From Protoeuglena noctilucae (Eukaryota), in NCBI GenBank assembly GCA_958009085.1, contig OY253688.1, positions 620,001 to 684,000 of the forward strand: 64,000 nucleotides of DNA, given 5' to 3'. The position numbers were made by a program, and so were the translations under genes. Shown here one piece after another: positions 1 to 44,700 of this stretch. The notes beneath the pieces are model-generated. The model was not told the origin of the DNA, made no database searches, and saw only the letters and a program-made list of their open reading frames with translations. Position 1 is the first letter of the stretch. Each line of letters opens with the position of its first letter.

Positions 1-602
1 TTGAATTGGGACTCGTCTCGGCTCTTGTGGAACACGCGGGCGAGGTCACGGGGGCTCGAGACGCCACTCCCGGACAGGCGGGCGCAGTACTGGGGGAGGG
101 AGAGGGAGAGGGGGTGGTGAAGGGGTGGTGGTGGTGTGGTGAATGCGGGTGAGTGACAGGTGAGACCGGCGCAGTGCTGCTCCTTTCGCAACCGGTCCCA
201 TCGCCGACCACATATGAGAACAGAAAGCCCCTCTCTGACCCTGTCACTCAGTCACTGATGAAAAACTGACGCCAGCCACGCTCCACGGCTCTACACATCC
301 CACACAACCCAGCACCACCACTCGCACGCTCGCACCTTGCGCCCGATGCCGTGCACGTCCATCAGCGAGGCCTCCGCGGAGCTTTGCGGGGAAGGCGGCC
401 GGGGCCTGTTTGCGGCCGATCGCGACGTCCCGATGCGCAGCGCGGGGGACGCGAGGTGCGCGCCGCTGCTGCTGGGCTGCACCGCATCGCCCTCCTCCCC
501 GTCGCCGCCCGCGTCGGGCGCCGCGTGCGCCGGGACGGACGCCAGGCCCGCAGCGCGCGGGATTAGCGCCGTTCCGCGGAATAGAGCCGCTCGCCGCAGC
601 AT
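1..602 (-). CDS. 5' part of a spliced gene with transit-peptide-like N-terminus and HhH motif; possibly plant-type deoxynucleoside kinase (runs off the window start)
   Basis: ATG at 602 gives MLRRAALFRGTALIPRAAG. Splicing GT ~335 to AG ~91 joins LMDVHGIGRK|YCARLSGSGVSSPRDLA, an L-x-x-V-x-G-I-G HhH motif resembling the N-terminal domain of plant dNK (recalled, not searched). Confidence 0.4.
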
Positions 603-1343
603 CGGCGGACGGTGCCCGCGCGGAGGGGCACACCGACTGGGGCGGTCCTGCGCGCGCGAGGAAAGCCGAGAAACGTTCCGGAAAGCGCGGGGCGACGCGG
701 GGTCGGGTGCACGACACGAAGACGAGGAATCGCCGAAGGCGGCGCGGGGCCAGGCGCGCGCGGAGGGGCGCGCGGCGGGGAGGCACCGACGGACGCATGC
801 GTGGGGGCCCGGGGCGGGCGGGGGCAGCGATAGCCGGGGCCGATAGCGGCATCCTACGTGTCGGAAGGCCACCTCCGAGCGCGCGGAAGCAACCGGGGGC
901 TCGGCGGGTGCGCGCGGCGCGGCGGGCGCCCTAGCAGGGTGGCGGGAGACTTCCCCGGGCGATGTCGTCCGGAGCCTTTCCCGCGAGGCGCTCACCTGTA
1001 GAATCGCACCGCTGGTTGCCATGTAAGAGCGCTTCCCGTGGGCCAGGCAAGGCGTCCCTTCCTCGTGCCAACGGACGGGCTACCGGCTCGTGGGCCGGGC
1101 AAGGCGGGCCCGCAGCGCTGCCTCGGCGACGATCGTCCTTCGTATACAGCCTTCGCGGCGAATGAGGGCGAAACCGGGCGCGGAGGCGCGCGAGCGGCGC
1201 GAGGGGCGCTAGTGGCAGAGATGCAGGCCCAGGAAGGCGGAAAGGACATCCACGGTTCAGCTGGTAGCGGCGATGTGCGGGGGTTGCGGCTGCGGCGCGT
1301 TCTTTCAGCAAACAACTTTTCTGACACAAGTTCGCGTCGCTTT

Positions 1344-1495
1344 CATCGGGAAAACCCGGCGATTTGACGTCACTCGGATCAGAAGGATCGCGGGAATCAC
1401 TGGATTCATCCCAGTGATCCCCGGGAATCGCCGGGATCATCCCCGTGATCCCGGCGATTCCCGCCACTGCCGCAGTGATCCCAGCGATCCCGGGC
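1344..1495 (+). repeat. Left TIR plus subterminal GGGATC/GATCCC motif array
   Basis: Dense short motifs in both orientations (ggatc, gatccc, ggaatc). GGATCATCCCCGTGAT (1434-1449) and ATCCCAGTGATCCC (1408-1421) recur inverted at the right end. Confidence 0.85.
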
Positions 1496-2035
1496 CGCGG
1501 CCCTGACGCGCGTGCGCGTCCCCGCGTTTGCTCAGGGGGCTCGAGAGGAGGCGGAGAGACCGCACATTTGCTAGTTGGTGCTAATGACTGCCTCGGAGGC
1601 CCCTCTCGCGTCCTAAAGCTTGCTCCAGCATGCAGACGGGGGCCGTCGACGCATCCGGGGTCCGCTTCCCCTGCGCCGCCGCTGTTCAACGTGAGATGTC
1701 CATATCTATGCGATGAGCGGGAGCTCGCGGGCTCGCCGGGCCCCCGGGGGCGCCGGGGAGGTCCCCGTGCTCGACCAGGCCTACCGCCGCCGCGGCCGCG
1801 ATCGGGCACGCAGCGCTTGGCCTATGGATTGAGGTGACCTAAATCTCGCTAGCTGCGGCGCCTTTGCCGGCTACGCCGCACGGAGGTGGCTGCTGCATGG
1901 GAGGTGAGCCGTCCCCGCCGTCATGGCGCTGCGGATGGGGGCGCGGGGCTGGCTTCGGAGAATTATCTCGATACAGATGACATCGCCGGCGTCGGGGACC
2001 TGGCACCGCGAGCATCGGGGAGCTCCTGGGGTCAC

Positions 2036-5000
2036 CTACTCCTCGCCGCCGCTGGCGTGGTGCTCCCAGACCTGCTGCACGTGGCCGCAGTGAAGAAGCT
2101 TTCCAGCAACTTTCACGGCGTGAAGCTGCCGCCGAAGGTTGCGGAGGGGCACGCACTTCAGAGCCTCGCCCTCCGCAGGCTCCAGGAGCGACAGCTGGGG
2201 AGGCTGCAGCGCTCCCAGGTTGGTGTAGAACGACAAGCACTGGTTGGACAGGTACCTCAGGTCGCATGGGGCCCTGTGCACCGGGGCCACCAGGGCGCAG
2301 AGGAAGGTCCCGGCACCGGAGCTGGTCTTCGCCTCAACCCCGCACACGACCCTGCCCGTCTGCAGCGTGCCCCTGTCCGGGAGGTACTCGACGAAGGACA
2401 GGGTCTCGTCGGTGGCGACGATCCTGGCCCGGTCCCCGCTGGCCGTCCCGATCTCGACCGTGGAGGTCAGCGCGACCTCGCCCAAGACGTGGCAGGGAAG
2501 CCCCGCGCCCTTGAGGGCGTTCAGGAGGTCCGCCTTAGAAACGAAGTCTTCCGCGCGTCCCTCGCTGCACAGGTCGTTCTTCTTCAGGACGGTCTTCACG
2601 CCCTTCACTTGGTCCTCGGGCTGGGACGGGACCGGCTGCTCCGCCCTCGCCCGGCTCTTGATGACGGAGGCCGCCCTCTGAGAGATGACGCTGGTGCTCG
2701 CCTGCGACAGGGCTCGGGGGTCAGTCCAGCGCGGCTCAGCATGGCACGCGGGTCGAGCGCCGTGCGACCGCATCGAGACGTGTGAGTCGCAAGAAACGCG
2801 TCCTGCGTGGGCTTCCCCGCGTCGCCTACGCTGGGCGGCGCTTCTTGCCTGTACCTGCACGTCGCCCTTGCCGTTCGTGCGCGCGTTGGCAATGGGCTTG
2901 TGCATGCGCTCGGCGTCGTTCATGCTGCCCAACATGATGGAGCCGTTCCTCGCCACCACTGCAGGGAAATGCGAAAGCGCGTGGCACTTCTGGCTGTTCT
3001 CGATCTTGCTGAAGAGGGGCTTCTCCGTGCGGACGATTTCGTGGCCACGCAGCAGCGTCTTGAGCACGACCTGCGGCGACACGGCAGCGACAAGGCTTCC
3101 AGAGTGAGTAAGGGGCAGCGAACGATGGGGCTGGTGTTGGAGAAGGCCTCACGTGGAGGACCTTATTCAGCTGCGCGTCCGCCGCCTGCGCCCCTGCGAT
3201 GGTGGCGCTCTCCAGGGACCATTCGGCATAGAGCTGAAGGCATGCCAGGGCTACGGCCACGAGCCCAACCCTCTCGTCGTGCACGTCTTTGCTGCCCGTA
3301 GGCTCTGCAAGGGATGTGGTGGTGGGGAAACACTCCCGGGGTTCCCCGGCCCGCATCGCGATACCCGCAGCTCCTCCCGATGCCCTCGCAGCGCTGACTG
3401 TCGGCCTCGCCTCGAGAGAAGAGCTCGACGAGGGCGAAAGGCAGAGCTTGGATCAAGAACCTCGCCTCGTACGCCTTTATCTTCCCAAACGGGTCCACGA
3501 GGCTCAGCACGATCTGGAAGGTCTCGCCCCACGGACGGGCGTGGATCCATGCCGGGGCCTGCGCTCCACCCACACGACGATGGACATGCCAGGTGAATAC
3601 CGAGCAGCTGCGGCGCCACTGCAGGCAACGCACGCCATTGCCTGACCTGCAGCTCACCTTGGCATCCGCAATGATCGATGCGAACGCAGCCAAGAGGGCG
3701 TTTGCCTTTGTCGCAGACTCTCCCGCTGCCGCGTTGTTGTAGAGGACGGTCAGTATGCAGAAGGGAACAGTCTTGCCCAACATTCCCAGTTCCACGGTGT
3801 GCATGGGGTCAGGTGCTTGGCCCTGATACAAGTCCGACCCGAACTCGTCCCAGTACGACAGGGCAGGAACCACAGGATGAATTTTGCTCTCCCTGGCTTG
3901 TTCGTTGGCCCTGGCCGTCCCCACGTCCCTCCTCAAGCGCAGGATGTGCTGCACCTGGAGGCGATGCAGCGCGACGGTGCGAGGCGTGCGGCAGTCATCC
4001 TGGAGGCACAGCGGGCACGACCTGACGGCCAGCGTGGACGAGTTGGCCATCATGTCGTTCAGCTGCGCCGCCAAGACGGGAAAGACGATGACTCTCCCGA
4101 CGTCGGGGAGGGTCATCCACACCCCACCGGACCTCGCCACGCCAATCAGCTGCCGGTCCACGGCAGCCAGCCGCCGCTGGATGGCCTCTCTGTTGTTCAG
4201 GTCTGCCTGTGACCCCGGAGTGATCCCGGACACCTGCGGGGGCCTCGAGCGACAACTCATACACGCGGCGTGGTGGTGGACGTGTGGGCTGCAACGCCGG
4301 CAATCCTCCTCTCGCCTTCATGGACTCGACGGTGGCCACGGTTCGCGGCGTCCCTGTCCTCACGGCTTTGCAAGGCGACAGGAGGTGCATGTGGATGGGC
4401 GTCGTCGATGCGCCCTTGGTCATCTCCACCCCGTCGATGCTGTACGCGACGGGCACGAGGAGCAGCCGGGCGTGCAGCTCGGGGCGGACTTTGCCAGCGA
4501 CAGCCTCGGCTATGTCGCTATACCCCTTCGCCCGGGAGAAGGTGAGCTTCTCGTGGATGCTGGGATGCGTCTCATGTGGTCTCGCCCGCGCCTGGCGTGA
4601 CCGTTCCCGTGCCTCGCTGAAGTCTCGCATCAACTTAACGAGCGTCTTGGGCTTGATCTGCTCCGCGTGCACCAGCATGTCCCTCAGCACCGTTATCGTT
4701 TGGTAGATGATGGTTGTGCTGCCCTCCTCTTGCAAAACCTGCAGGCCGTGCGTGCACTGGTTGGCGTCAGCCCCCTCGGCCGCGTCCGAGGCCCTCGACA
4801 CAAGCGGCACCGCGGCGTGACGCACCTCGTACTGGCCATGGATGCTGTTGAGTGAGGTGTGGAACGTGCGGTGGGAGCGCCCGAGGTCGAGAAGGTCGTC
4901 GCGGATGTCGGGGCGCAGCTTCACGAAGCAATCGAAATGCGCTGCCGTCAGCGATGCCATGAACTGCGCCCCTGCTTCAAGTTGGCTCAGGTACTCATCG

Positions 5001-5494
5001 TCACTGTCCCTGCTCCTGGCCCGCCATGCCTCCAGGTCCTCCGGCAGCTTCAGCGGTTCGTACTCCCCGGGCGCAGGAAGGTAGGAGACTCCAGGAGCGT
5101 CCTCTTGGGGCGCATCATGCGCTCCGGCGCTCTCGGGCGGTTCACCCCTCTCCGAGTCAATGTCCACGTCCATGTCCACGTCCGTGTCGGCGTAGTGGAG
5201 CCACGCGAGTCCTACATCTTCGCTCTCGCCATCACTGCCCGCAGCAACGTCCGCCGTCCCGTCTTCCTCCCGCAGTTCTTGGTCTGGTCCCGCGCTGGCG
5301 CTGTCGCGTGCCAGCCCGTCCGAGCCTCGCAGAGACGGAGAGACATAGTGTTCGTGTGGGGCGGCGGGGCGGGGTGCTTCCTGGCGGCTCTCCTCGCCAT
5401 ATCTCCAGCCCCACAGCGCAGGGCATCTTTGCTGATGCCGGGCGAGCTTGGCCGGGGTATCGAATTGCGTTCCACACGCGTCGCATTCGAGCAT
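2036..5494 (-). CDS. Plavaka/CACTA-like DDE transposase, multi-exon, N-terminal C2H2-like zinc finger
   Basis: MLECDACGTQFDTPAKLARHQQRC zinc finger, acidic linker, LVPVAYSIDG (D1 ~4434), VFPVLAAQLND..SCPLC (D2 ~4055), PDPMHTVELG (~3809), KCHALSHF and DAERMHK..TN (E ~2910). Frames join via introns, e.g. GC-AG intron 4315-4234 in phase 0. Confidence 0.82.
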
Positions 5495-6180
5495 GGTGAG
5501 CTGCAGCGCAGGTTGCGATGCAGGGTTCAAGGCGGGCATGGTGAGGGCGTGGAAGCGGAGGGAGCGCCACATAGGCTCACCTAGCGCAGCTCGATGCGCC
5601 TTTCACGCGCATGGGGGCCCCCACGAGGGGAGCGCCGTGTTGGATGCCGTATTGGCCGTTTCTATCCGTGGGGATGTTTAGTTCCACAACCAGCAGCACT
5701 GACGTTCTTCTTTTGTCATGGCTACGTCGATTTCGCGGTGCACGGAGCCCAGTACGGCCAGGAACGTTGATCATTGCGCCGCTGGCACCGCGGGCCCGAC
5801 GCTTGCCTGCGCTTCGTTCTGCGTACGTCGGGCCGCTGCCGGGGTCCATTGGCTGCAGCAGTTGCTCCAGCCCCTCCCCGTTCTGCCGCAGAAAGCCCCA
5901 GACGCCCCCTGAAGCTCTGCAGTCGCATTGCGCACACCAACGGGTCGTGTGCGTGCACTTTTGAAGCAACAACCTTTACTCGGGCCCCAGCTGCGATGTA
6001 CCGGCGGCAATGATGCGCAAGTGAGGCGCGCGCGGCGCAGCGGCTTCCTTTCATGGTTGCATCTGGGGTGCTCAGCGATCGCTGCGCGATGCGAAGTCTG
6101 CGCCTCAGTGACCCGCCATGGCAGCTGCATTGTGGCTGGAAGGCTGCGTTTTATATATGCCTTCCATCCTATGACTGCAG

Positions 6181-8851
6181 CGGTGGCGGGAGAGCCAACT
6201 TCATAGCCCCGAGGGCCACAGGCAACGGTGGGAATGGTGGGGCCGGCGCCAGCAGTGCTGGAGGGGGGTCTTATCCGGCCAACCCACCAGAGGCACTGCT
6301 ACGTCAAGGGACCCAGCCAGGCATGCCCGACTGGGCCAACCGCACGGACAATCGGGTCGCCAATCTTGCGGATGACGTGGGGCGGATGGCACACACCCTT
6401 AACGACGTGAAGGAGTGCGTGCGGGTGACTGAGCAGCGGGTTGGAAGATGGGTTTTGCGCCGACGAGATGTAGTTCCTGACATAGCCTAAACAGCCTGTA
6501 ACCATCACCGTGGCCCGTAGGAGTTGCAAGGGCAGCAAGGGCAGCAAGAGGCAGTTATGCAGTGCGTCGTAGAACGCCTCGCAAGTCTCGACACAAGCTA
6601 CCAGCTCCTACTGGCCCGACTCGAGGGCGGCGGATGGGCTACAGGAGGACATGGTGCGGGCAGCCGACGGGTGCCGGAGGTGCGTGTTGCCTGTGTCGTG
6701 TATACGCCCAGCAAAAGCCATTTTCAGAGCGAAGCTCCATGCCATCCGCGTCCTCTTTCTCCCTTTCCAGCAGCGGGAGCGCTCCCCCGACCCTGGCGAG
6801 GCGGAGGAGGGGGGCGCAGCCGTGCCTACGCCGGGCGCACAGCGAGGCAAGCAGCGGGAGGAGCCACGCCTGCGCCACTGGCGCACATTGGAGACGTTCA
6901 AAGACCTTTCAGACAATTTTCTCCCAAAGACGATTTCCCTGGCGACGATGTCCGAGTTCGTCCAGGTTGCGGGGGACATACACTGTGCCACGGGCCTCGC
7001 ACTCTTCCTTGTACTAAAGGTGATTGCCTCGCCACGGGCTGCTCCAGCTTGCTCTACATCGTAGCTGCTATTCATGTAGACGAGTTGCATGGCGGCGACC
7101 AATGATGCACTCATCCAATCCTGACCATCCCGTCTTTCCGTCATCGTCCCGCCCTTCCGTGCCCGCGCAGACGTCGGGGATGCGCGAGCCCTATGATCAG
7201 CCAGGCAGCATGGTGCTGCCGTCGTCAAGAGGTGGCATTGTCGCTTTCTCGATGGTCTACGACGCGGTCGCCTTCTACCCGACTCCGGAGCAGGCGTGGG
7301 CCTCCCTGATTTGGGACCATGTGCACCAGGACATGCGCCCGTACTCCAACCCAGAGACACCTCCTACTCATACACAAGGCGACCCCAAGCGTTTCTGGAC
7401 CCTCGCCGACTGCTGCAAGACTATGATGAGCAACATCAACAAGGTGGTCCAGCACCCGGTGCACTGCTTCATCCGGGAGCACCTGATGCTTGGGCTGGGC
7501 TGCAACACCCTGGACGGTGGGTGGCAGTCGTTCATCGTCGAGGACGAGAAGGTGAGCGGACACGAGTTTGCTGCTGGCGAGGCAGCACAGGTTGGGATAC
7601 ATGGGATGGACCCGGGGTGCGATTTCTTGGCATCGCAGGGAAAATTCCGACTTCTCACCGACGAGGAGCTGCAAGCAATCGACGGCGCTGCTCCCAACGC
7701 GGTCAGTGACGCGGTGGCCACGTGGAAACGCCAGCTGTTCCAGGGCAGCATCGACCCGTCTCGTCCCCTCGACTCGGCATGCATTCAAGAGATTCTCGCG
7801 CACCTGCAGAAAACCTTGTGCTCTATGCGGGAGAAGAGGTCTCAGCCCGTCATCAACAAGGGCGGCCTGTGGACGGTCACGCTGCCGTACTTGGCGTCCA
7901 TCCTTCGTCACGTGTTCCAGGCAAGCGGCATGCTGCAGATGTGCAGGGCAGCAGGCGGGTTGAAGTCAGATTGCACATAGTGCACAATATGTGCGGTCAA
8001 GCGTATGATAGGCTTTCTTTCTGCACACTGTATGTGGAGCCCCGCAGAACACGCACAACTCATGTCACGTAAGCGCGACGTTGGGTTTCCCTTGCCTCAT
8101 CCTCACAGCTAGCCTATCATGTGTTGCTCCCCAGGCCCTCGAGATCATCCCGTCGAGCCACCGCACTGCAAGGGACCCTTTCTGCGCTATCCTCGCCCTC
8201 CTGGAGGAGTCCCGAGGCGAATCGAGGTGCATACGGGATGTGCCAGACGTCCTGCGATTCCGCCCGGCGGGTGTTGCGCTGCAGAGCAAGCCCGACGCAG
8301 CAGGAGTGCGGCACAGCCTTCAGGCGCCCCTCGGTGCTCAGGCGCAGCTGGCGAGATCGTGGCTCGAGCCTCTGTACGACGACCCTCAGGCCAGGGGGCC
8401 TTGTGGCGAGCTCCGGGGGCTGAGGGATTTCCTACCTGAGCAGGCCCGTTTGGCTCTGGATGAGAGGCGCCAGAGGGAGCTGCGGGAGAGGCAGGAGACG
8501 GAGGCCGAGCGGGCCCGCGTTCGGGCAGCGGCGCGCCCTGACGCGGGGGATGCCGGGGAGCACAGGGATGGAGGCACAAGGCGGGGAGGTGGCGTTAGGG
8601 CACGAGGGACGGCTCTGGCTATGGGGTCGAGTGGGGCTGCGATGCTGGAGGACGCGGCTGCCGACGTCGACGGGCTGCAGAATGCCATGTTGGCACTGGA
8701 CCAGGAGCGCCAGGCAGCAGCCGCTAAGGGCGGGCAGATGGGTATTGCTCCCTCGCAGCCCCGTCAGTCGAGCCACGGGCCGTCTCAGGCGCAAAGCACG
8801 GGTGCTGGAGGAAGCCATGGTGGGGTGCAGCGTGGGACGCACCGGCGTTGA
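6181..8851 (+). CDS. Transposon second gene (accessory/TnpA-like position), unknown function, multi-exon; start uncertain
   Basis: Successive coding-like segments (6181-6445 with coiled-coil-like LADDVGRMAHTLNDVKE, 6520-6680, 6770-7020, 7171-7920, 8135-8851). Phase-0 join HVFQ|ALEIIP across 7921-8134. Confidence 0.65.
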
Positions 8852-10839
8852 AGGTGAGGTACGCTGCGCTGCTGTCATGCGGCGGGCCGCCTTTTGGCGG
8901 GGCAAGCGTTGGGGCCAGGTGAGGTGAGCTAGTTACTTGGGGCTCGAGCTTGTGCAGGCGCTGACTATCATGAAAGTGAGCCAGGGCGTGCCGGCTGAGG
9001 GCGAGGCCGACAATGAGATCCAGGGTCGAGGTGACTTATCGAGGCATCTGGTCGGTTAAGACGATTCTCCCGTCAGGTGCATCAGCGTCCCGTGCTAGAG
9101 TGGCAGCACCGTCAGGTGCGTTTCCAGGGCAGCAAGCAGGGTACCGATGACGACAATGTGTTCCTCAAGGTAAGGTTGTTGCAGCTGAAGCTTCATGCGA
9201 GTTGTTTGGTACAGAAGTGATGTAAGTTAGCGTCAGCCGTGCCGCAGCACCGGCGCGTGGTGCCTGTTGCCGAGCAATCGGTGAGGCGTGTTGCATGTCT
9301 ACCTGTTCAGAAGGACATCTGGTGAGAGGCTCTCGCATAGCATTCAGTCCTGGTGAGAGGGTGGAGCGAGCGGGCGGCAGGTAGCGTCAAGACAGGTGCG
9401 GCAGGCCGCGCAGGGCACAGCCACGTGCAGAGGCGGCCAGGGACGGGCATGGAAGTCTTTTCATGAAATGACGGATACCTTGCTTCGGTTTGTTTGCTGG
9501 CCTTCTGATGGCCATGCGGCTGGGTGTGGGTCCGCCTCGTGTGAGTGCTGCGAGGGGCCCCGCGTGGGGTTGAGTAGCTCAGCCTTGCTGGTCCCAGAGG
9601 TGCGCTTGCTGTGCGTGGGGTAGAGGACGTGCCGTGTCTGATAAAAAGGTGAGGAAAGTCCAGCGCGCGCTCTGTGGGTCAGGCAGGCTCAGGGGTCGTC
9701 AGTCCTCCAGGCAAGCGGGGGTGGATTGCAGGGCTGCAGCGACAGCACCGCGCACAGGCGAGGCTCGGCGCTGCTGGTGCGAACAGCGCTGGATCATCGT
9801 CCCTCTCTAGGGTGAGAGTGCAGCCTGCTGCTGAGCCATCTGCGAGGTGTGCTGACGTGGCTGGGGAGGGGAGGGGCCAGCTCCCGTGAGGTGAGATGCA
9901 GCATACGCATGACTAGATCAGGTCGGACATTGTCGCTGTCCCCGAGGTGCGCGGTTGGTCTGCTGCGCTACCGGTGGGGTCTGCGACACGGTCAGGTGTG
10001 CAAGGGGGGGTTGGTTGGCTGGGAGGGACGAAGGGCTGGTCCGCCAGCGTGGTATCTCTGTACTTGCTACCTGTACCTGGCACCGTGCCTGCACTCTCTC
10101 ACCCCGAGACTGACTCTAACTTCGCCTAACAAGCACGCAGGCGCACGTGCCACCTCGTCCCAAGTTCCGGCGCTGGTCGGGTGCTGGCCGGGCCCGCCAT
10201 GGCTCGTCCGCCGACCCATGCCCCTTGTCTGTCGTCTGGCGTCCGCGGCGCCCCGCAGCGGTGGTCATCGACTCCTGGGGCGGCCGTCGGCACGGCGGAG
10301 TCGCGCACGCCACCATCTCCCGAGTGCCTGGCCCGAGTGCCGGAGCGCCGCTCCCCGATGGAGCAGCAGCGTCCGGAACAAGCGGTCGGTGCCTCTGGCG
10401 GTGGTCGCTGCGCGCTCCCGTCGCGCCTGCGGCCGCCCGAGTCCGGCTGCATGTGCGTGCATGAGTGCGTTGCCTAGAGCGTCACGGATGGTCATGTAAC
10501 CTCGGCGTAGGGATTGAAATACCAATAGCTACGCTAGGGAGCGATTACGGGCCGAACGGAGCCCCCCGGGCCGCGCGGGCCCCGGAGCGCGCGTGCCCAA
10601 AAGATGCGTCCGATCGCGATCAAGATAGGTCTGATCGCGGCCGAGAAGGAAGATAGGCGGCGGGATAGCCTCGGCTAACGCTTCCGGCGCCGCTGCGCTC
10701 CCGAGTGGGCCCCGCTCCCCGCGATCCCCGACCACGACGAAATGCCGCGAAACTGCTCCCAGCGGCCTCTCGCATCCCGGGTGCGCCGTGGCCGTAACCG
10801 CGCCGCGTAAAACGGCCTCCCCAGGGAGATCGGGCGCGC

Positions 10840-11004
10840 GGCTGGAATCACTGGGCTCAATGAGGGTTTACATTACAGTCTGTGTCGTCAGTGGGATCAC
10901 TGGGATGATCCCTCTGATACCCCGGGATCAGCGGGATGATCCCCACGATTCCTGGGTATCACGGGGATGATCCTACTGACGCCAGACTCGCGGTTTTCCC
11001 GATG
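10840..11004 (-). repeat. Right subterminal array plus right TIR
   Basis: gggatcactgggatgatccc, gggatcagcgggatgatcccc and atcacggggatgatcc, followed by ggttttcccgatg. Confidence 0.85.
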
Positions 11005-11244
11005 TTTGTGGCCATTTCCCCTCCCCCTTCACCCATCCGCCGTCATTTGCCCGCGAAGACCACTCCGCGACGCCCGCTGCGCCTGTATACATCGGCTTCT
11101 CGCCCCGCCCGTGCCCCGTGTCCCCTGCGAGCCCCGCTGGGCCGACCGCCGGGCCTGCGTCCGTGCCCCCGCCGCGTTGCGCTTGCTCGGATTGATTGAC
11201 GCCGGGGGATCTCCCCCGCGCCGGTCCGCCGCGTGGGAGGAGGC

Positions 11245-12808
11245 ATGACGGGGCCCCAGAAGCGGTCCACCGCGCTCAAGGTGCAGTTTACGGACAAGGA
11301 CGATGGCGAGGACGACGTGGACGATGCTTCGAAGCGCATGAAGGCGAGGGCGCGTGCGGACGCGCGCAATAAGCCTCTCGCCGATCCACGGCAAGCTCGC
11401 ATCGCTTCGCGCGGCCTTTTCCCCCCGCAGGCGCCCCTCCTTCCGCCTCTTCCGGACCTGAGCCCGGGCCCCGCGCTTCTCCCGCCACTCCCGGTGCCCG
11501 CGCCCGCCCCGCCGGCCGAGCAGCCCATCGAAATCGTCGAGGACCCCTGGGTTTGCTGCGAGCGATGCAACAAGTGGCGCCGACTGCCCCCGGGGACGCC
11601 TCTCCCGGACGACGACGAACCGTGGTTTTGGTAAGGTCCTCTCGAGTCTTTTCCGCAGCGGCAGGCGTCCGCGCGGGGCGGGGAGATGACGGCAATGACG
11701 CGCACGCTTTAGGTCGCGCGAATACGCTTCGCTGCCGCCCGCCCGCAGCGAGATGAACCCGAACCGGCAATTCAGCAAATGCTCGGTCCCGGAGGAGAGC
11801 TGGCAGATGCAGGCGAGGCCGCGGGGCGCCGATTGCTGCAGCGCCGCGCCTGTCTCGCCCTCGCCTGTCGCACGCGCGAGCGTACGGATCCAAAGCGAGT
11901 CCCGGATGTTTATATTCGACTTTCTACCTTTCGCAGAGGCTTCCGGGCGTCATGCAGGACATCTACATCCCGCCTCCCGAGGCGTTTGCGCCACCGATGG
12001 GGCCGGGCTTTGGGGAGGTCAAACCGGGCCGGGGATTGGCGGCGAGGGGCCGGGGGAGGGGTCGTGGGCCGGGCAGAGGGTCGGGGAGGGGCACGGGGAG
12101 GGGAGGGCGCGGGAGGGGCAGGGGAAGGGGGCGGGGGAGAGGGCGGGGGCGGGGGCGGGCGCTTGCAGACGAGGTGAGGGGGGCTGGGGGTCGGGATGGG
12201 GAGGGGTTGGCATTAGCATGGATGTATGGGCGGTGCTCGGGTGGTTGTCATTTCTTGCTGCAGGTGTCCTTTGCACCTACTGTACATATCAGCCCACATA
12301 AAATACCCCCGTACCATGCATGAGAAGTACTGCGCAGTAACAGATAAGCATCATGACCCAATGATGTACTTTTATGATATATGATAGTACATACATAACC
12401 ATTAGCCTCTCTAATCCCTCTCTCTCTCCCCAGGGCGAGGACGCGTATCTCTCCACGCTGCCCCCCTCGCTCCGCACGCTGCCCCTCGACGCCCTGCAAG
12501 CCTGCCGCGACGCGTGCCGTGTACTGGCACAGAGCGGCCAGTGGACCGATCCGACCGACTGCCTCGTGAACCCATCGGCGCCCTTATCAGTGCCGCCACG
12601 CTGGGTGTGGTCCGCCATGCGCGAGCTGTGCCCCGACCAACACCGCGTAGCCGTGCAAGCGGCGGACGCGGTGACGGCGGCGGCGTACGTGCGGCTCTCG
12701 GGGTTCGCCAGGCAGCAAGCGGCGGAGGCGGCAGAGGCGTGTCAGGCGGCCATTGCCGAGGCCGGGAGGGTCGCGGCGCTGGCGATGGGGGCCGTGCCGT
12801 GGGAGTGA
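11245..12808 (+). CDS. CW-type zinc finger protein with RG-repeat tract
   Basis: WVCCERCNKWRRLP..PWFC|EMNP..CSVPEE (zf-CW) joined by intron 11631-11748. Long (GR)n tract at 12040-12160. Last exon 12434-12808. Confidence 0.85.
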
Positions 12809-13273
12809 GGGGGAGTGGGGAATGGGGTGGATGGGGGGTGTGCAGTGTTGGCTGTGGAAGTGAGGGTGCTGGTTGGGGAGGTGGCGCTGGCGATGGGGGC
12901 CGTGTTGTGGGTGTGGGAGCGAGCGAATGCGACCAAGGTCGACAGTCACGTTATATCATAGACATGCGTCCCTTGCCTTTGCTCATGGTTTGCTCCTAAA
13001 GCCTGGGTACAGGACCGTAGTGGGCGGTAGTCAAATGCTGCCATCGCCCTTCACTCTACATAGTATTAGTAACCCCCGACAGCCCATAGCTCTCGGGCCT
13101 CTACTCACTAGAGGTCGCCCATTCAATTGTTGGCGATGGACGTTCACGCGTCATTAGTATGAAACAAAACCAAACCAAACTGTAACAACGTGTTACATGC
13201 AAGCCGAAACTTGCAAACGCAGCTCAGCACTTGCCACATCCCCACCATTCATCAACCCCCCTTCACACCCCCC

Positions 13274-15966
13274 TCACACCCACGTCCCCTGCGTGACGCT
13301 CCGCACGCTGCACGCCTCATGCAAGTTACTGCACATCCTGACCACATCCGCATCGGAGCTGGGATCGACGTTCCTCGCCCGCAGCTGCGCGCTGCGTGCC
13401 CAGCAGGCCCGCGTCTCCGCCTGAAACTTGCGCAGGAAACTAGCGACTTTCTTGTCCAGGAGCGTTTGAAACCGACCGGAGGTGGGGTCGCCGGCGAAGT
13501 CCACGCGAGAGACCAGGCGAACGCCCCCACTGTCCTGCAATCACGAAAAGGGGGCCTGACATCCTGAGTGACGAAAGCACGGGCATGACATTTCCCATCA
13601 TGGCAGACAAGACATGGCCATAACTATTACTTCAATGATCAGTTAGCCCACCTCACACTCATCCACTTCACACCTCCTCTGCTCCACCCAGCCTCACCTG
13701 CCCCCTCACCCCACCACCATCACACCCCACCCCACCCCACCACCCCTCGCCCCCTCACCTGCCCCCCCGATCCCCCCCCCACGCTTCCCAAACGCCGTCT
13801 CTCCCCCAGACGTCTCTTCTTCAGACGATTCCCCGGCCTGCCATATTTGAACGCTCCCCAGCGCCACACCCGCCGGTATCACCAGACCGTTACTCAGCAC
13901 CGTACCCTCAGGACCCTCAGCCCCACGCTTCCCACGCATAGTCAATGTCTTCCCGTCACCGCTCGACGCCTCCCGAGAGCTGCCAGATGCCGCCGCCGTC
14001 CCAGCCCCCCCATCAGCCCGACAGGCCATCGCACCCGCACCCCCACCACCCGCACCCGCCCCGTCGTTGCGAGTGAAGCATCGCAGCAGGCGAGAGAAGC
14101 CCCCGGCCCGCTTTCCAGCCGCCTCGTGGCCCAGGAAGCCCGGCACCCCCGGCGGGGCCGTTTCTGGCAGGAGGTCGATCGTCAGAATGGTGACGTCGTC
14201 GTTGAGGCCGTGGGCGCGGCCCGTCCGACGCAGCTGAGCACAGGGGAAGGGATGGGGTGGTGTTAGGTGGTGTTAACTTGCTTTGCAAAGGCGAGAAAGA
14301 GGGTCAGAGTGGGGGCAAGCGTTGAGTGGCGGTGGTGTGATGGCAGGTCGAGTGGGTGAGCGTGACTGCTGTATCCTAAGTTTGCGCACACCCGCCCCGC
14401 TCTGCCCCATCCCCCCTCACCAGCTTGCGCCCCGCCGCCTGGCAGTTGAGTTTGCGCGCACACACACCCACACACAAACACACACACACCCCCACCCACC
14501 CACACACACACACACACACCCACCCACCCACACACCCACACATACCCACCCACACACGCACACTCTAACCCCTCACCAGCTTGCGCCCTGCCGCCTGGCA
14601 GTTGAGTTTGCGCACGCGCGCGACCGTCGCCACGTCGCTGCCCTTCTCCACGTCCCACAGCCCGTCCGTGGCAATCACGATCCGACACCCGGACTCTGGC
14701 AGGCGGTACTGGGCCACGCTGGGGGCGCACGTGATGGGCTCGCCCACGTCGAAGTCGCCAATGCCACGACTGCGACATGGGGGGTCGGGGTGGGAGGATT
14801 AGAAGGTAACATGACCTAACTTAGCTTAAACCATCCACTGCCAAAAAGCCCCCTTTTTCCATGTCCCCATGTGCCATGCCTGCCTCAACAAACCCTAGCT
14901 CGCTTGCCCCATCTCACTCGCTTCACCCCATCTCCTCACCTGACCGCCAGCCCCCCCGGCCACACCCGTAGCGGCCCGATGCCCGCATACCTGTCCCTGG
15001 CGACTCCCTGCAGCGACACGTCCAGCCGCCGGACGATGTATCGGGGCTCATAGGGCAACAGGCGCTGCCTCTCTAACTCGCTGTCATCCAAGCGGTGGTC
15101 CTCCGTCAGACCCACGACGTCAGAACCGGTGTCGACGTAAGCCGAGGAATCTCCCAGATTCGCCACCGTGATGAGCCACCCCGTCTGCAGCACGATGGTG
15201 CACGTGGCGCCCGACGAGATGCCCGCGGCTGCAAACTTGCGCTCCACCGCCGCCAGCGCCAGCGCCACCGCCGCCCGCAGCTGCGCCAGCCACTCGTGGA
15301 TCGAGGCCTCGTTGTCCGCCGGCCAGGGCCCCACGGGCAGACGCCGGTGGATTTCCCGGTGTATCGCTCCCATGCTGAACTGGGCGGCCTCGTGGCCGTT
15401 GTGACCATCGAACACCGCGTAAAGCGAGTAGCTCGAGCCGTCCAGCACCAGCTCCGTGCCCGATCCGGCCGCGGGACCCTCCACGAACTCCAGCTTGTCG
15501 CCTTTGGACCCCGCCGCACGCTCAATGCGGTTCAGGTCCGTCAGGGTCATGCCGCAGGCCGCCTGGATGGCGCGCGTGGCAAACGCCTGCCCGCGATGCA
15601 CGGACTCGCGCGTGGGCCATACCGTGCCTAAACGCACGTGGTGCTTGTCCTCGCCCTTCAGCAACCCGACCGTCGCATCCACTTTGATGCATGGGAGCGT
15701 TGAGCCGAAGTAGCGGGCCTTCTGCGGGGACGAGGCGCGGGCGAAGCATATTGAGGGGGCAGATAGGAAGACAAATGCCAGAATGAGGTGCAGGGGGCGT
15801 CGCAGGGCCGGCGCAGCGGCGGGCGGGCGGGGCATTGCAAGCGTACCAGGGCAGGGACCTCGTCGAGGTGCAGCGCATCGGCCGGGGCGCTGAAACGGCC
15901 GAACTGCTGCAGGACGTTGTTGAACAGCCCCGCGGGAGAGCTCGCGGGGCCCAGAACCGTCGTCAT
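13274..15966 (-). CDS. PP2C/PPM family protein phosphatase
   Basis: KGED, AVFDGHNG, SGATCT, VANLGDS, LTEDHR, GPLRVWPGGLAVS|RGIGD, IATDGLWD and NDDVT motifs across exons. Confidence 0.93.
14455..14565. repeat. CA/CAC-rich microsatellite in PP2C intron
   Basis: Runs of cacaca/caccca. Confidence 0.8.
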
Positions 15967-31674: not shown

Positions 31675-34600
31675 ATGTACGCGGCTTCGGAAGCCCAGAA
31701 TTCCACGGGCACGGGCGCCATGAGCGTCAAGAGCCCCGGGAGCGTCAAGCCGCCCTTGGCCCCCGTGGTGTCGCGCTCTCGATCTGAGAAAAGCCACACC
31801 CTGGGCCCCCTCATCGCCGAGGCGTCGGCCGCCCCGGGTCCCCCCGCGCCGGTGCGATCGTTGGAGGAGCGTTCCGTGGACCCCGGGGCTTACGACCTCA
31901 CACCCCGACGGTCGGTGGGGGTCACGTTTCGCGATGCTGAGGGGCCCAGGTGGGTGGGTGAATGGGGGGTGGTGACAGTGGATAAAATGGATGGGAAAGG
32001 GAGCGGATGAAGTGGGTGGGCTGGATTGAGAGGGCTGTCTCTCACGCCACTCCCAACGTCCCACCCTTCATCTCACAATCGCCCCACTCTCACCCACCCA
32101 CCCAACCCCCCTCCCCACCCCCCCCTATGATGCAGTCGCTCCCACCGCATCTCCGGAATGGGCCAGCAGGCTCCCGCGTTGAAGCACAAGCGCAGCAAGA
32201 TGGCGTCCATGCCGGGCATTCACAGGGCGGAGGGGGACGAGGGGGAAACGGACACGGCGCCACAGTGGCTGCAGGAGGCAGTTGAAGCGCATAACAGGGT
32301 GAGGGGGTGATGGGGGGTGGGGGGGGTTCAATAGGGGTGGGGAGGGTGCACAACAGGGTGAGAAGTGAGTGGTAGTAATGACGAATGGTGGGAGAGTGTG
32401 CTTGCTTGAGTGGGGGTGCATAGGGTGATGGAGGTAGAAGGGATGGCTGCAGGAGGCAGTCGAGGCGCATAACAGGGTGAGTGGGAGATGGGGGGTGGTG
32501 GGGGTAATGGGTATTATGGACATAAACCGGGGCTGGTGGATCAAAACAGACACCCTGTCACCTGCGCTACTGACTGTCATCTTTCCACTCACCTCTCCCT
32601 CCCCCCCAGCGCTACACCGGCACATCCCTGGTGGAGGCCGACCCCGGCTCCCCCCCCCTCCACCGACAGCGCCCGCGTGCAGCAGCGATCGCGCATCCTC
32701 TCGCGATTCGCGGACTCGTCATCCGTCGCCGCGCGCGACGCCTTATTCGCGACGCACGCGGGGGATGACGAGCACACGGGGCGGGGACTGGGAACGGGTG
32801 CGGGTGCGGGTCCGGGTGCGGGTGCGGGGGTGGGTACATCGCGACTTCAATCGTCGTCCAATCACCCCGGCGCCCTGCCACCGCCCCGCCTGAGCACGCC
32901 GGCGAGGAGTTCGCAGGGCGAGGCGCGGGCGGGGGGGGTTTCGGGATCCCAGTTGCGGGGGGGGGGGTGCCCGGGTCAACAGCGACGCCGGGGCTAAGAA
33001 AGACACCGTCGGGGTCGTCACGGCATGCGGGGGGAGTGCAGAGCAATGGGGGGGGGAACACGGTGAGCGAATGAGAGAGATGGTATGGTAAGTGGTGCAG
33101 TGATTGCCGACATGGTGAGGGGATGAGGGAGGTGGGGGAGTGATGGCATGCGGGGGGGGGGGTGCAGAGCGTGGGGGTAACACGGCGAGCGGGAGATGGA
33201 GAAATGGTGGAGCGATGGCAAAGACCCCATACAGCACCCCATATCTCACCCCACATCCCTCTCTTCCCCCCCCTCCCCGATGGCCTCCACCCCCCGCGGC
33301 GGCACCCACCACGGCGGATGGTCCAGCGCCGCCAGCATTGGCCAGAATAGCGTTGCAGGAAAGGGGGGGTCATCGAGAGTGGTGGCGTGGGGTGGGTCGG
33401 ACAGCGTGGGGTCGGCGGGGGCGTCGGGGAAAGGGGCGGATAAGGCGCCGGGCAGGGCGGGGAGCGCGGATAGGGGGGGTGAGTGGGTGGGGTGGTTGTG
33501 AGTTTTGATCTCGACTCTTACAGTTCCAACATCTAACAGCCTTCATCTTACAGTCCTACATCTTACAGTCTATCTCTGCGCATCACTCCCCGCAGTGTTT
33601 CTGGACTCCAATAACTCCAGCACCAGCGCCCCCTACCGCCACCACCGCCGCCCCAGCGTGTGGGCCTCGTGTTGCTGTGGGGGAGGGGCGGTGGCGGCGG
33701 AAGGGGAGAGGGCGAGGGGGAAGCCGGGTGAGTGTTGATATCAGTGGTGATGTTGATATTGTGATAGTTACAGTAACTATGACAAACACTGACGGTGTTG
33801 TGTGGGGGCCGTGGCTGCGGAAGGGGAGAGGCCGAGGGGGAAGCCGGGTGAGTGAGGAGACAGCCATGGGAATGGGAATGGTAATAGCCTTGATAGTGAT
33901 AGGGATAGGAACACTGTGTTTGCGTTCACCAATGCTGCGCCTGCACCGTCGCTCCCCATCTCGCACACCCTTGCTACCCATCTCCCACTCCCATCTCCCC
34001 CTCTCCCACTTACCCACCTTCCCCATCCCCATCATTCACCTCCCCATCATCACCCCCTCTCCCCCCACGCAGCCACCCGTGCTGCCAAGGCCAGCACCGT
34101 GAGTGTTGGGAAACACACGGGGAAAGCCACGCCGTCCGTCACTTTGAGTGTAGTTAATGATATAGTAACAATCCATCAATAATGGTCCGTGTTGCATGGC
34201 GTTGGTTGATTGTCATGATTACACACAGCCACGCCGTCCGTCACGGTGAGTGTAGTTAATGATATAGTAACAATCCATCAATAATGGTCCGTGTTGCATG
34301 GCGTTGGTCGATTGTCATGATTACACACAGCCACGCCGTCCGTCACGGTGAGTGTAGTTAATGATATAGTAACAATCCATCAATAATGGTCCGTGTTGCA
34401 TGGCGTTGGTCGATTGTCATGATTACACACAGCCACGCCGTCCGTCACAGTGCGTATCATCAGTGACATAGTAAGAAGTAATACCACACTATGTCATCTT
34501 TCCTTCCTCATCAACTGGTGCCTATCGCACCCACACCCACGCCCCTCACTTCCCCCAGGGCCAGCCCCGCCGCAGCCGAATGCGCTCTATGAACGGCGTG

Positions 34601-41057: not shown

Positions 41058-41782
41058 GGTAGCGACGTGGAGGTGAGCGAGGGAAGGTAACGAGCGAGAT
41101 GTGGCCGGGGCAGGGCGCGTAACCGGGTCAAGCCTTCCCCAAAACCGGGAGGGTAAGGGGTCCCCCGAGGGTTAACACTAACGGTTGACTGGGCACGCTC
41201 AGGGCCCCCGCGGATGCACATGCGCGCAATCTAGGCGTGTCGGAACATTGCAGAGCTCTCGGGGACGCGCCTGTCTCTCTGCATGCATCTCCGAGCATGT
41301 CACGAGAAGCGAGCTGGACAGGTGCGGCTCGCGACGACTTCATCGAGCGTGGGGGCCCCACGCGCGCTGGAATCCGCGCGCTTGCACGCGCGCGACGCGC
41401 CTGAGATGCTGCACGCGCCCACTGGTCACCAGGGCCACGCCCCGCGCGTCTCTCCGCGGAGCCGCGGTGGCCACCTGCGCTTGCTGTTCTCCGGTATTCA
41501 TTTGCACCCTGCTCACGGACGCGCAAGGCTTTTCGCCGCTCCACGCGGGCCTCCCGCAGCCTCATACCAGAGTCAACCCCCTGGAAGCTGACTGCGGGGC
41601 CCTGCTGAGCCCGCAGACGGCAAAGCCTTGTTTCTATCATGTCGTGTGGAGGGTGTCCCCTGCGCGCGTGCCGGTGGTGCTTTCCTTTGTTTCACTCACG
41701 CTTTCGCACTCGCAAGCGGGGGTGGGGCCGCGGACGCCGCGCCTAGACCGCAACGCCCTACTTTCCCCTCCCTCGTGACGCC

Positions 41783-44700
41783 ATGCCTGCAGGGCGGGGG
41801 CAGGCGGAGGACGCGGAATGTGTGCCGCTCCCCTTCGTGTCGGCCTGCTGCCCGCCCCAGATGGCCGCCCATGCGTCGTGGACGGTGGACCGCTTCATCC
41901 GACTTCAGAAAATTGGCGAGGGATTTGCCAGTCACGTGTTTTTGGCAATCGACACGCTCGGCCGCATGCGCGTCGCGCTGAAGGTGCGTCGCAGCTCCGC
42001 AGATGCTCGCCGCGCGGCGCCGCGGCTCTGCGACGCGTCACCTTGGCAATGCCGCGTTTCTTCCTCTCAGATATACCAGAAAAAGAACCTGACCCCGGCG
42101 CTGCTGGCGTCGGTGCGCCACGAGGTGTCGGTGCATGGCCGCATCGTCCACCCGCACGTCCTGCCCCTCCTGGCCGCGTTCGAGGACGGCGGCTATCTGT
42201 GCATTATCACGTGGTGAGCACGCGACGAACTGCATCCGGGCGGAGCTCCCAGGGACTTCGCAGCCGCAGCGCCCGCACAACTGCACTTGGCGCGCTGGCT
42301 CCCACTGTCCCGCACGGCTTGTTGCAAACACCTGGTCCCATTACATACACGATTACATACATGTCTAATTCCGCGTTTCTGCCCTGCGCACCCAGCGTCG
42401 CGGAGAACTCGGACCTCTTCCGCCGCCTCCCCGACATCCGCCGTGACGAGCCGACGGTGGTCAAGCACATCCTGGGGCCCCTGCTCTCGGCCCTCGCGTC
42501 GCTCCACATTGCGGGGTACATCCACAGGGACATCAAGCCAGAAAACATCATGCTGCAGGTGCAACATGCTGCGCGCATGTTGCACCCGAGGTTCTCGGGT
42601 TGCGCGCACTTTGCACACGAGGTTGCACGCTCCGATAGCAGAGCTGCTGGGGAGACGCAAACACGCGCAGGGTTGCCTGCACGCTCCCATTCCCGCCCCT
42701 CTTCCCGCCCTCATTGGCCTTACACCCTGCTCTGCGCTCACCGCCTGCACCCCCACTCCCACCCCCACTCCCGCACCCACTCCCACCCCCACCCTCACTG
42801 CCACCCCCACTCCAACCCTCACTCCCACTCCCACCCTCACCGCCCCACCCTTCCCCCCTCCCCCCAGGGCTCCCACGCGCTCCTCGCGGACTTTGGCTTC
42901 GCTATCTGCCACCGCCGCCGCCGCGCGCTCACCCGCCTGGGCACGCTCCAATTCATGGCGCCTGAGGTGGTCTTGAACGACCCGCACGACAAAGCCACGC
43001 ATCGCGACGCGGTGCCGCGGGGCGTGCGCCTGCCTTACTCGGAGACGGTCGACGTGTGGGCGTTGGGGGTGGTGGCGTTCGAGTGCATGACGGGCGCGCT
43101 GCCCTTCACGGGGACCACCGAGGACGACGTGGTGGACGCGGTGCTGAGGACGAGGCCGCAGTACCCGGGGACGCTCAGGTGAGGGGGAGAGGGAGTGGGG
43201 GAGTGAGGGTGGCAGAGTGGTAGCAGCAGTGAGAGTGAGGGTAGCGAGCGTCATGACCAAGAGTAAGCGTCTTACATGCAATCGTCTGCATCGTATGGTC
43301 ACTGTTCACCCTTCGCAGTCGCGAGGCGGTGGAGCTCCTGAAAGTGTGTTATAAAATCATGACCGGTGTCATCGTGTCAATTATGCTGGTCACACTTCTC
43401 GTTATTATTGCAGTCGCGAGGCGGTGGAGTTCCTGGACCTGTGCCTGGCATACGACCCCGGCAAGCGAGGATCGGCCGTCGACCTCTACTACCACCCCTT
43501 CGTGAGTGTCACACGGACGGGCGATGGGCTGGCTGGGCACGCTCCCACGTGCACGTTCACGCACATCATCCCACTCAGCACATGTGCCAGCTGCGCTTCT
43601 CAACAGCACGTCTGTCCATGACATGACGTCACCCCAGCTGCACTGTTAACAGCCAGAGACGCCATGCCATGCGCACGCATCATCGCACATCGTCAGCGCC
43701 TCAAACGCTCCTGCTGGCTCCCACCCCACCCGATCCACCCCGCCACGCTCCTTCCTCCCCCTCACTCAGATCCGCAAGCACATGCCCCGCGACAACTGGC
43801 ACAAGCTGGAGCCGTCTAATTGGGCATCCCCCGAGGCATCTGCCACCGCCATGGCAGCCTTTCCCGCCCTCGTGCCCTCCATGTGCCAGGTGAGCCTGCG
43901 ACATGAGAACTGCCAGACACTTGCCGTACGGACTGCGGAATGCGAGAGTCACTCGTCGGAGTTAGCTTCGATCACCACGAGCTGACTGCGGCCGATCAGC
44001 GCAAGCGATTCGCATGGCATGAGACGCCACCACTCATCCCCCTCGCCCCCCCACCCCCTCCATCCCTCCTCTCTCACCTCGCTCCCTGACCCCACTCCCT
44101 CCTCCCCTGCCCCCCAGGCCCCCCCGCCAGTCACTGCAGATGACGGCGCTGACCCCGACCCCCGCACCCCCTCCGCCATCCGCCGCGCATGCGGCTCCTT
44201 CGCTCGCCCCAACCACGAGCCGGACACGCTCACTATCGGCGGCCAGCGGGACCGGTTCCGCGCCCAGCACTCCCAGTTCCAATCCAACCTGCCCCTACCG
44301 CCGCCCTCGGTGGCGGGGTCGGCTGCCAACTCCCTGCCCATGGGGAACGCCCCGATGCCCTGGGGCCCGCCCACGCGCGACTGGAGCGACCCCGCCAACG
44401 CCCCGCTCAGCCCCGGCCGCGCCGCACTGCCACCCGTCCGTGTGTGTGCCGGCGACCCTACAAGCGACCTCCGTGCCCGCGCAGTCCAGGGCTCATTCGC
44501 CCAGGCAGCCGCCGCGGCGGTCCACAAGTCCGCGCTCAGCTCCCCCGCGCTCGCCTCCACCCGCGTCCGGCCCAACCCGCGCGCCCCCCAAGTCGCGCCT
44601 GTCGACTCCGGGCAGTCGGCCACCGCCCCCGCACCCTCGGGGCGCAGCTCGGGCATGCTGGGGATCGGGCTCTGGCGCAGCCTCTCCCGGGGCGTGCGGC

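Follow-up and report, generated by a model that had tools for sequence, protein, structure and literature searches.

A window of 64,000 nucleotides from contig OY253688.1 (Protoeuglena noctilucae, assembly GCA_958009085.1, positions 620,001 to 684,000) harbors, at its positions 1344-11004, what is very probably a young, multicopy cut-and-paste transposon. It appears to be PlavakaB-like and to belong to the clade uniting CACTA/EnSpm, Mirage, Chapaev and Transib, and it resides in a GC-rich marine alga. The copy found in the window is a rare long form of 9.66 kb with two genes. The common form of the family is 5,573 bp long (1344-5558 joined to 9647-11004) and is devoid of the second gene, here called gene 2. 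The novelty lies in this pair of long and short forms, which differ by 4,088 bases containing an expressed orphan gene, within an already known type of transposon.

Both ends of the element are sharply delimited. It is bounded by a perfect 13-bp inverted repeat, CATCGGGAAAACC, with TTT standing immediately outside on either side: the left border reads ..GTCGC TTT CATCGGGAAAACC.., with 1344 as first base of the element, and the right border ..GGTTTTCCCGATG TTT GTGGCC.., with 11004 as last base. A preliminary description of this DNA had placed the inverted repeat and the TTT duplication exactly there, and both were confirmed. Its estimate of an imperfect repeat of about 37 bp is fair as well, as 16 of the 25 positions past base 13 agree between the two arms with a one-base offset (read by eye). 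Throughout the 64-kb window, exact CATCGGGAAAACC occurs at the two element ends only, once on each strand; when as many as two mismatches are tolerated, four matches are obtained versus 1.38 expected from shuffles. Subterminal 31-bp repeats with GGGATCA/TGATCCC motifs lie inside both termini (Table 1), those on the left being inverted matches to 10893-10979. GGGATCA is encountered three times on the plus strand of the window, each time within the element ends, and the motifs are absent from the rest of the element. Such subterminal repeats are the presumed binding sites of the transposase.

Other copies share these ends. The stretch, or part of it, is contained in 17 of the 24 public runs listed, which comprise marine metagenomes with the metatranscriptomes of their samples, and runs bearing either of two coded organism labels. 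Contigs of four runs (X13, X14, X9 and X6) were aligned to positions 1-13000 of the window; X6 bears a single-organism label and yields unspliced contigs, so that it behaves as DNA, and X9 is a metatranscriptome. On the left, the similarity of contigs from other copies breaks immediately before 1344 (X13, X14, X9). On the right, it breaks behind 11004 (X14, X9) or behind 11006 (X6, X9), and in the two cases of the latter kind the new flank likewise begins with TT. The preliminary description had proposed to look for further copies with the same ends, and they were indeed recovered from the four runs, in contigs whose element part stops at exactly 1344 and 11004/11006 and which continue into different flanks. 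Seven different flanks were observed beyond the element, with the triplets CAA, GAA and CAC next to the left end and CTG, ATG, TTA and TTC next to the right one, and because five of these seven triplets hold at least two A/T bases in a genome of 65% GC, they give a hint of an A/T-rich target preference.

The insertion of the window itself is present in X6, where contigs over 1-1369 and 10979-13000 have depths of 121.9 and 129.7. In the same run, contigs of the element arms (1361-5558 and 9647-10538) reach depths of 3,896-4,144, about 24-33 times that of the flanks, which suggests roughly 24-33 copies, contig depth being a rough guide to copy number only. Relative to the window copy, the contigs in which other copies are collapsed (1344-5558 and 9647-11004) show seven listed single-base changes, and the seven alternative letters are identical across X6, X13 and X9. 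Moreover, the open reading frame (ORF) of the first transposase exon falls into a cluster that comprises 28 members at 90% identity, and a variant of the exon-2 ORF was found on 55 contigs. The element is thus multicopy, with near-identical copies, and appears to be young. Broader pattern searches of metagenome contigs added nothing to this set: the 18-base terminal pattern matched 119 loci, which are chance matches since none of the 119 shares blastn similarity (E <= 1e-5) with the element, and the exon-2 peptide gave 115 pattern matches, none confirmed by tblastn.

The difference between the two forms resides in a single extra segment of the window copy. The joint 5558>9647, which skips this segment, was found in all four runs aligned, and three bases (AGG) fit either side of it; in the long form, AGG stands at both junctions, at 5559-5561 and 9647-9649. 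The short form must be the usual one because in X6 the joint has a depth of 4,144 and the extra segment one of 170.8, about single-copy level. The full-length, two-gene structure of 9.66 kb given in the preliminary description is therefore not the usual form of the family. The two divergent genes that it reported do exist in the window, the transposase on the minus strand and gene 2 on the plus strand, but gene 2 lies in the segment that the common form is missing. In the common form, the right arm stands directly upstream of the transposase start codon, which is preceded there by 17 in-frame codons without ATG.

Gene 2 is a multi-exon gene directed away from the transposase. Its ORF 7024-7977 exhibits a coding-type GC content by codon position (0.60/0.48/0.74), and it is expressed, as pieces of RNA contigs align to 7169-7549 and 8557-9676. 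It has no Pfam match, no relatives beyond its own cluster in searches of the protein collections and no consistent lead in the ESM Atlas, and the Pfam scan of the element ORFs detected no domains such as those of the PAG type (methylase, SET, ParB). A nested transposon or LTR element in 5559-9646 was considered and rejected, as the segment has no terminal repeats. Run X13, which bears a different organism label, holds the whole short form in one contig of 5,647 bases with the same seven variant letters as X6, as well as two small contigs whose sequence equals that of the extra segment at 8047-8405; this might stem from a species in common, from transfer or from contamination. Contigs covering the window flanks are absent from X13 and present in bits only in X14, and such gaps in cover carry no evidential weight. 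Finally, an X6 contig of single-copy depth (127.8) joins 2463 to 9811, thereby skipping 7,347 bases, with 29 letters on its shorter side; it weakly suggests that internal deletion may have produced another derivative, about 2.3 kb long.

The transposase gene is predicted to comprise six exons on the minus strand, with a coding sequence of 2,934 nt for 977 amino acids and no internal stop. The introns of this model measure 82-153 nt and have four GT donors and one GC donor (GCGAGG), all acceptors being AG; GCGAGG is also the donor supported by RNA in the neighbouring host gene. GC content by codon position (0.66/0.46/0.82) designates the minus strand as the coding one in 2036-5539. The predicted protein carries an N-terminal C2H2-like zinc finger (CDAC..HQQRC at amino acid 19; weak Pfam zf-C2H2 match, E 0.09). 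Further downstream, the motifs SIDG (367), LNDMM (450) and DPMHTVE (534) hold candidate catalytic residues, assigned by eye. The motif CPLC (465) is located 13 residues past the D of LNDMM, and the sole His pair nearby is that of HRLQVQH (H-x5-H, amino acids 482-488).

The exon-2 peptide matches a single Pfam family, PF18759 (Plavaka), weakly (E 0.0068-0.0098, 15.6-16.1 bits), with residues 24-143 of the query on profile positions 198-317 of 325. Its ESM Atlas neighbours, which provide a lead only, are Plavaka clusters in 22 of 30 cases and Transposase_21 in one; the best neighbour scores 0.97 and shares 188 of 256 features. On the contrary, no peptide matched Transposase_21 (PF02992) even at E up to 10, Transposase_24 gave no match and the KDZ family was found neither in the Pfam results nor in the Atlas rows shown. 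Among ORFs of at least 100 amino acids, none of the 58 scanned matched Pfam at E <= 0.01 (63 are listed, of which five crossing the element ends were left out of the scan). A phmmer search of the exon-2 peptide against PDB chains remained at chance level (a designed coiled coil came out first, at E 0.14), and an AlphaFold2 model made without alignment was unusable (mean pLDDT 36.2). Altogether, the enzyme looks like a DDE-type transposase of the Plavaka type, as the preliminary description had suggested.

The ends of the element point in the same direction. Plavaka groups with EnSpm, Mirage, Chapaev and Transib, and PlavakaB elements are defined by termini 5'-CATCA..TGATG-3' and by target duplications of 2 or 3 bp (Kojima, 2025; PMC12730594). 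All 30 Plavaka consensus starts among the matches listed from the supplement of that work begin with CATC (28 with CATCA, one with CATCG and one with CATCT), and many continue as ..G.AAAAC. The termini described here, CATCG..CGATG, share four of the five PlavakaB bases, and the TTT duplication, known from one flank pair, fits the 2-3 bp range. The best of the listed consensus starts is that of PlavakaB-1_RuGr, CATCAGGAAAACC, which agrees with 12 of the 13 terminal bases of the element. PlavakaB membership is thus supported independently by the terminal sequence, in addition to the transposase. It follows that ends starting with CATC, which the preliminary description regarded as non-canonical, correspond to the published definition of PlavakaB, and that the association of a Plavaka enzyme with defined ends, which it inferred for a possibly undescribed family, was already in print (PMC12730594). 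Concerning other families, the 3-bp duplication and the subterminal repeats are traits of EnSpm/CACTA as well, but the ends are CATCG..CGATG and not CACTA; similarly, the duplication comprises 3 bp and not the 8 bp of Zisupton, in the Kyakuja-Dileera-Zisupton group.

In the cycle that we propose, the element would encode on its minus strand the 977-amino acid DDE-type transposase with its N-terminal zinc finger. This enzyme would bind the GGGATCA-type repeats within both ends, cut at the CATC termini and reinsert the element with a 3-bp staggered cut; at the present site, which precedes the zf-CW gene by about 200 bp, such an insertion would have duplicated TTT. From the uninterrupted transposase model, the multiple copies and their near-identity we infer that the element is plausibly still active. 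The preliminary description had called it intact and possibly active; the open frame and the young copies agree with this, and activity itself stays at the level of a plausible deduction, as no empty site was seen.

Transcripts of run X9 cover both strands of the transposase region. On the minus strand, RNA supports one intron, located in the 3' untranslated region of the transposase gene: the skipped piece ends in CT..AC, i.e., GT..AG on the minus strand, and was seen in two contigs (depth 27.2). This is the whole of the minus-strand support, and the six-exon splice model of the coding part is a prediction. Four GT..AG introns (2466-2572, 3104-3391, 3593-3716 and 4542-4744) are spliced out of plus-strand RNA, which is antisense to the transposase, at depths of 39-158. 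A real plus-strand gene across 1344-5558 was considered and rejected, since the spliced antisense product contains no long protein-like open frame and GC content by codon position points to the minus strand. This spliced RNA may be a sign that the element is regulated by antisense RNA or silenced. Scans of 1-13000 for Rfam families and tRNAs found nothing.

Several observations weigh against this interpretation of the element. The 16.1 bits obtained with PF18759 are below the gathering threshold of 26.3 bits and emerged from about 78 partly overlapping peptide queries, and neither the four peptides taken from the last part of exon 1 nor the two of the C-terminal exon matched anything. When phmmer was run exhaustively against 1.84 billion representatives, it retrieved only the element itself and one spurious tandem-repeat protein (P0002), while word-based protein searches retrieved its own clusters only. 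The His pair, assigned by eye, is H-x5-H and not the H(3-4)H motif named for these transposases (PMC12730594). Regarding mobility, the 3-bp duplication relies on the single TTT/TTT pair of the window, the flanks of the other copies being unpaired; none of the 15 joints listed, of 26, corresponds to an empty site (about 1343 to about 11005), and no excision footprint was seen. Copy number is read from contig depth with the caution given above, and the RNA joints across the transposase body lie on the strand opposite to the coding one, whose introns are predicted.

Two scenarios may be envisaged for the origin of the two forms. The short form of 5,573 bp could be the original autonomous element, in which case the window copy would have gained, at 19 bp before the start codon of the transposase, a foreign piece of 4.1 kb from a host gene or another mobile gene; gene 2 would be a cargo or an insertion, and the transposase might be cut off from its promoter. 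We take this scenario seriously, as a possibility that falls somewhat short of even chances. The short form is abundant and has kept the whole transposase frame, the segment terminates in ATAAAAA and gene 2 is without detectable transposon link. The AGG on both sides could represent the 3-bp duplication of an insertion, but internal deletions just as typically leave a microhomology of 3 bp. Furthermore, the segment harbors neither terminal inverted or direct repeats nor any Pfam family, including those of reverse transcriptases and transposases; the introns of gene 2 exclude a processed retrocopy; and no donor copy is visible, the depth of the segment being 170.8 versus 122-130 for single-copy flanks, nor any paralogue in the protein collection. 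Since no donor or paralogue was seen and since deletion derivatives are usual in this class of elements, we slightly favour an ancestral long form, from which the abundant copies would derive by internal deletions joined at the AGG microhomology.

Two further alternatives concern the lineage and the mobility of the element. It might belong to another lineage of the clade (canonical EnSpm/CACTA, Mirage, Chapaev or some branch without a name) and share no more than CATC-like ends with Plavaka; such an origin is improbable, given that the ends read CATCG instead of CACTA, that the terminal 13-mer matches published PlavakaB consensus starts (PMC12730594), and that the Plavaka clusters among the Atlas neighbours face a complete lack of Transposase_21 matches for any peptide. 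In favour of such a lineage stands the combination of 3-bp duplication, subterminal repeats and second gene, all of them CACTA traits too, along with the one Transposase_21 neighbour and the Pfam score under threshold. We consider it very improbable that the element is an immobile, dead repeat whose near-identical copies result from recent segmental duplication or from assembly collapse. Segmental duplication would run past the inverted repeats, and the boundaries are exact and common to at least four left and at least five right flanks, counting those of the window; inverted repeat, flanking duplication and the open frame of 977 amino acids argue for transposition. A dead repeat would account for the lack of any observed empty site, excision footprint or insertion polymorphism, and for sense-strand splicing being confirmed for the 3' untranslated intron only. 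The young, PlavakaB-like transposon remains our preferred interpretation, and its features are given in Table 1.

Table 1. Positions of the features of the transposon in the window.
Feature	Position	Strand	Remarks
Left target-site duplication TTT	1341-1343		identical to 11005-11007
Left terminal inverted repeat CATCGGGAAAACC	1344-1356	+	
Left subterminal 31-bp repeats, GGGATCA/TGATCCC motifs	1391-1452		period 31, 2.0 copies
Intron in 3' untranslated region of transposase gene	1929-2035	-	directly after TAG stop; X9 RNA joint 1928 to 2036
Transposase gene (predicted model)	2036-5539	-	exons 5539-4364, 4233-3658, 3558-3411, 3304-3153, 3070-2855, 2701-2036
Extra segment, 4,088 bp	5559-9646		in window copy, missing from common form; contig joint 5558>9647
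Gene 2, multi-exon orphan	6300-8850 (approximate limits)	+	directed away from transposase
Right arm, common to all copies	9647-11004		contigs of X13, X9, X6
Right subterminal 31-bp repeats	10892-10973		period 31, 2.7 copies
Right terminal inverted repeat	10992-11004	-	
Right target-site duplication TTT	11005-11007		

The host genes of the window encode a PP2C, a dihydrouridine synthase, ankyrin repeats, a kinase and an argininosuccinate synthase, and an exon with a zf-CW domain is located just to the right of the element (11200-11631). In this right-hand host gene, two of the three introns supported by RNA are of the GC-AG type with the donor GCGAGG (11344-11430 and 11813-11936, plus strand). 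GC-AG introns represent 56% of the mapped junctions in Emiliania huxleyi (PMC4028052) and 14-17% in two pelagophytes (10.1101/2024.10.30.620910). The pattern, drawn from three introns only, plausibly resembles that of Emiliania-like haptophytes or of pelagophytes rather than that of green algae, and the host is on this basis plausibly a chromist.

Several repeats were also noticed elsewhere in the window. A unit of 161 nt is present in three diverged copies (70-72% identical) that are 3.5-4.5 kb apart (42399-42559, 46920-47080 and 50415-50575), and a unit of 54 nt in two copies separated by 4,453 bases (42849-42902 and 47302-47355). Together with a weak match to a Pkinase exon at 41747-42214, these units suggest a tandem array of kinase-like genes. 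C-rich short tandem repeats such as CACTCCCACCCC occur throughout the window (14449-14581, 42724-42894, 52093-52203, 57760-57870 and others), and three tandem copies spaced by 102 bp and 92-98% identical are found at 34125-34477.

A bolder scenario would combine these elements: a still active family of the PlavakaB type whose host, judged by its GC-AG introns, is a chromist resembling haptophytes or pelagophytes, so that the lineage extends beyond fungi and Archaeplastida; a rare long form carrying an orphan accessory gene of its own; a microhomology-mediated loss of this gene leading to the 5.6-kb form; a burst of the latter to about 24-33 copies; and an abundant spliced antisense RNA that marks control by the host or by the element itself. 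Taken as a whole, we consider this scenario tentative and rather unlikely.

The present analysis adds to the known mobile elements a Plavaka family of a marine alga that has clean borders, is very young and probably still moves; its ends, its duplication, its repeats and a transposase model are defined. Knowledge of the mechanism of this transposon class is unchanged. Of some interest are a host range that may extend beyond fungi and Archaeplastida, the orphan accessory gene and the spliced antisense RNA. The coexistence of long and short forms provides a natural experiment on the need for an accessory gene in Plavaka movement. The family might be used to follow genome changes between strains of an abundant planktonic organism, or as raw material for a transposon tool.

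Among classical systems, the En/Spm (CACTA) element of maize generates 3-bp duplications, combines short terminal inverted repeats with subterminal arrays and encodes more than one gene product; its internally deleted derivatives, dSpm, outnumber the long form. The element described here is similar in its 3-bp duplication, its terminal and subterminal repeats, its more than one gene and its abundant shorter form. Unlike En/Spm, it has CATCG termini, gives no match to Transposase_21 or Transposase_24, and carries two separate, divergent genes instead of splice variants of one transcript. In addition, its abundant short form retains the whole transposase frame, unlike dSpm.

With PlavakaB of Agaricomycotina fungi (Kojima, 2025; PMC12730594), the element shares the CATC start, the 3-bp duplication, a single large transposase with a candidate C(2)C motif past the putative second catalytic D and the presence of an accessory gene in some family members. 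PlavakaB-1_AuCo likewise starts with CATCG (PMC12730594, supplement). Differences concern the host, which is a marine GC-rich alga, the fifth base, which is more commonly A in the fungal elements and G here, and the transposase, which falls below the Pfam threshold. The accessory gene of the fungal elements encodes a TET/JBP dioxygenase, whereas the one described here is an orphan without Pfam match.

Plavaka elements are also documented in photosynthetic hosts, so that the view of the preliminary description that they are mainly fungal no longer holds. They were reported in red algae, where accessory genes PAG1-3 were described in a preprint on Bostrychia (10.1101/2025.02.11.637652), in chlorophytes, streptophyte algae (Spirogyra) and moss (PMC13519894), and in Auxenochlorella, whose "EnSpm-Plavaka" insertions are polymorphic between haplotypes and potentially active (10.1101/2025.02.07.637104). 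Among the literature matches listed, none concerned by title a Plavaka element of haptophytes or pelagophytes, and searches combining Micromonas or huxleyi with EnSpm returned nothing relevant. Compared by description only, the algal elements and the present one seem alike in a transposase of the Plavaka lineage, a photosynthetic host and an accessory gene beside the transposase. However, the red-algal elements are giant (17-19 kb) and mostly degenerate, whereas the element described here measures 5.6-9.7 kb and exists in near-identical copies, and its host, with two of three host introns of the GC-AG type, may lie outside Archaeplastida.

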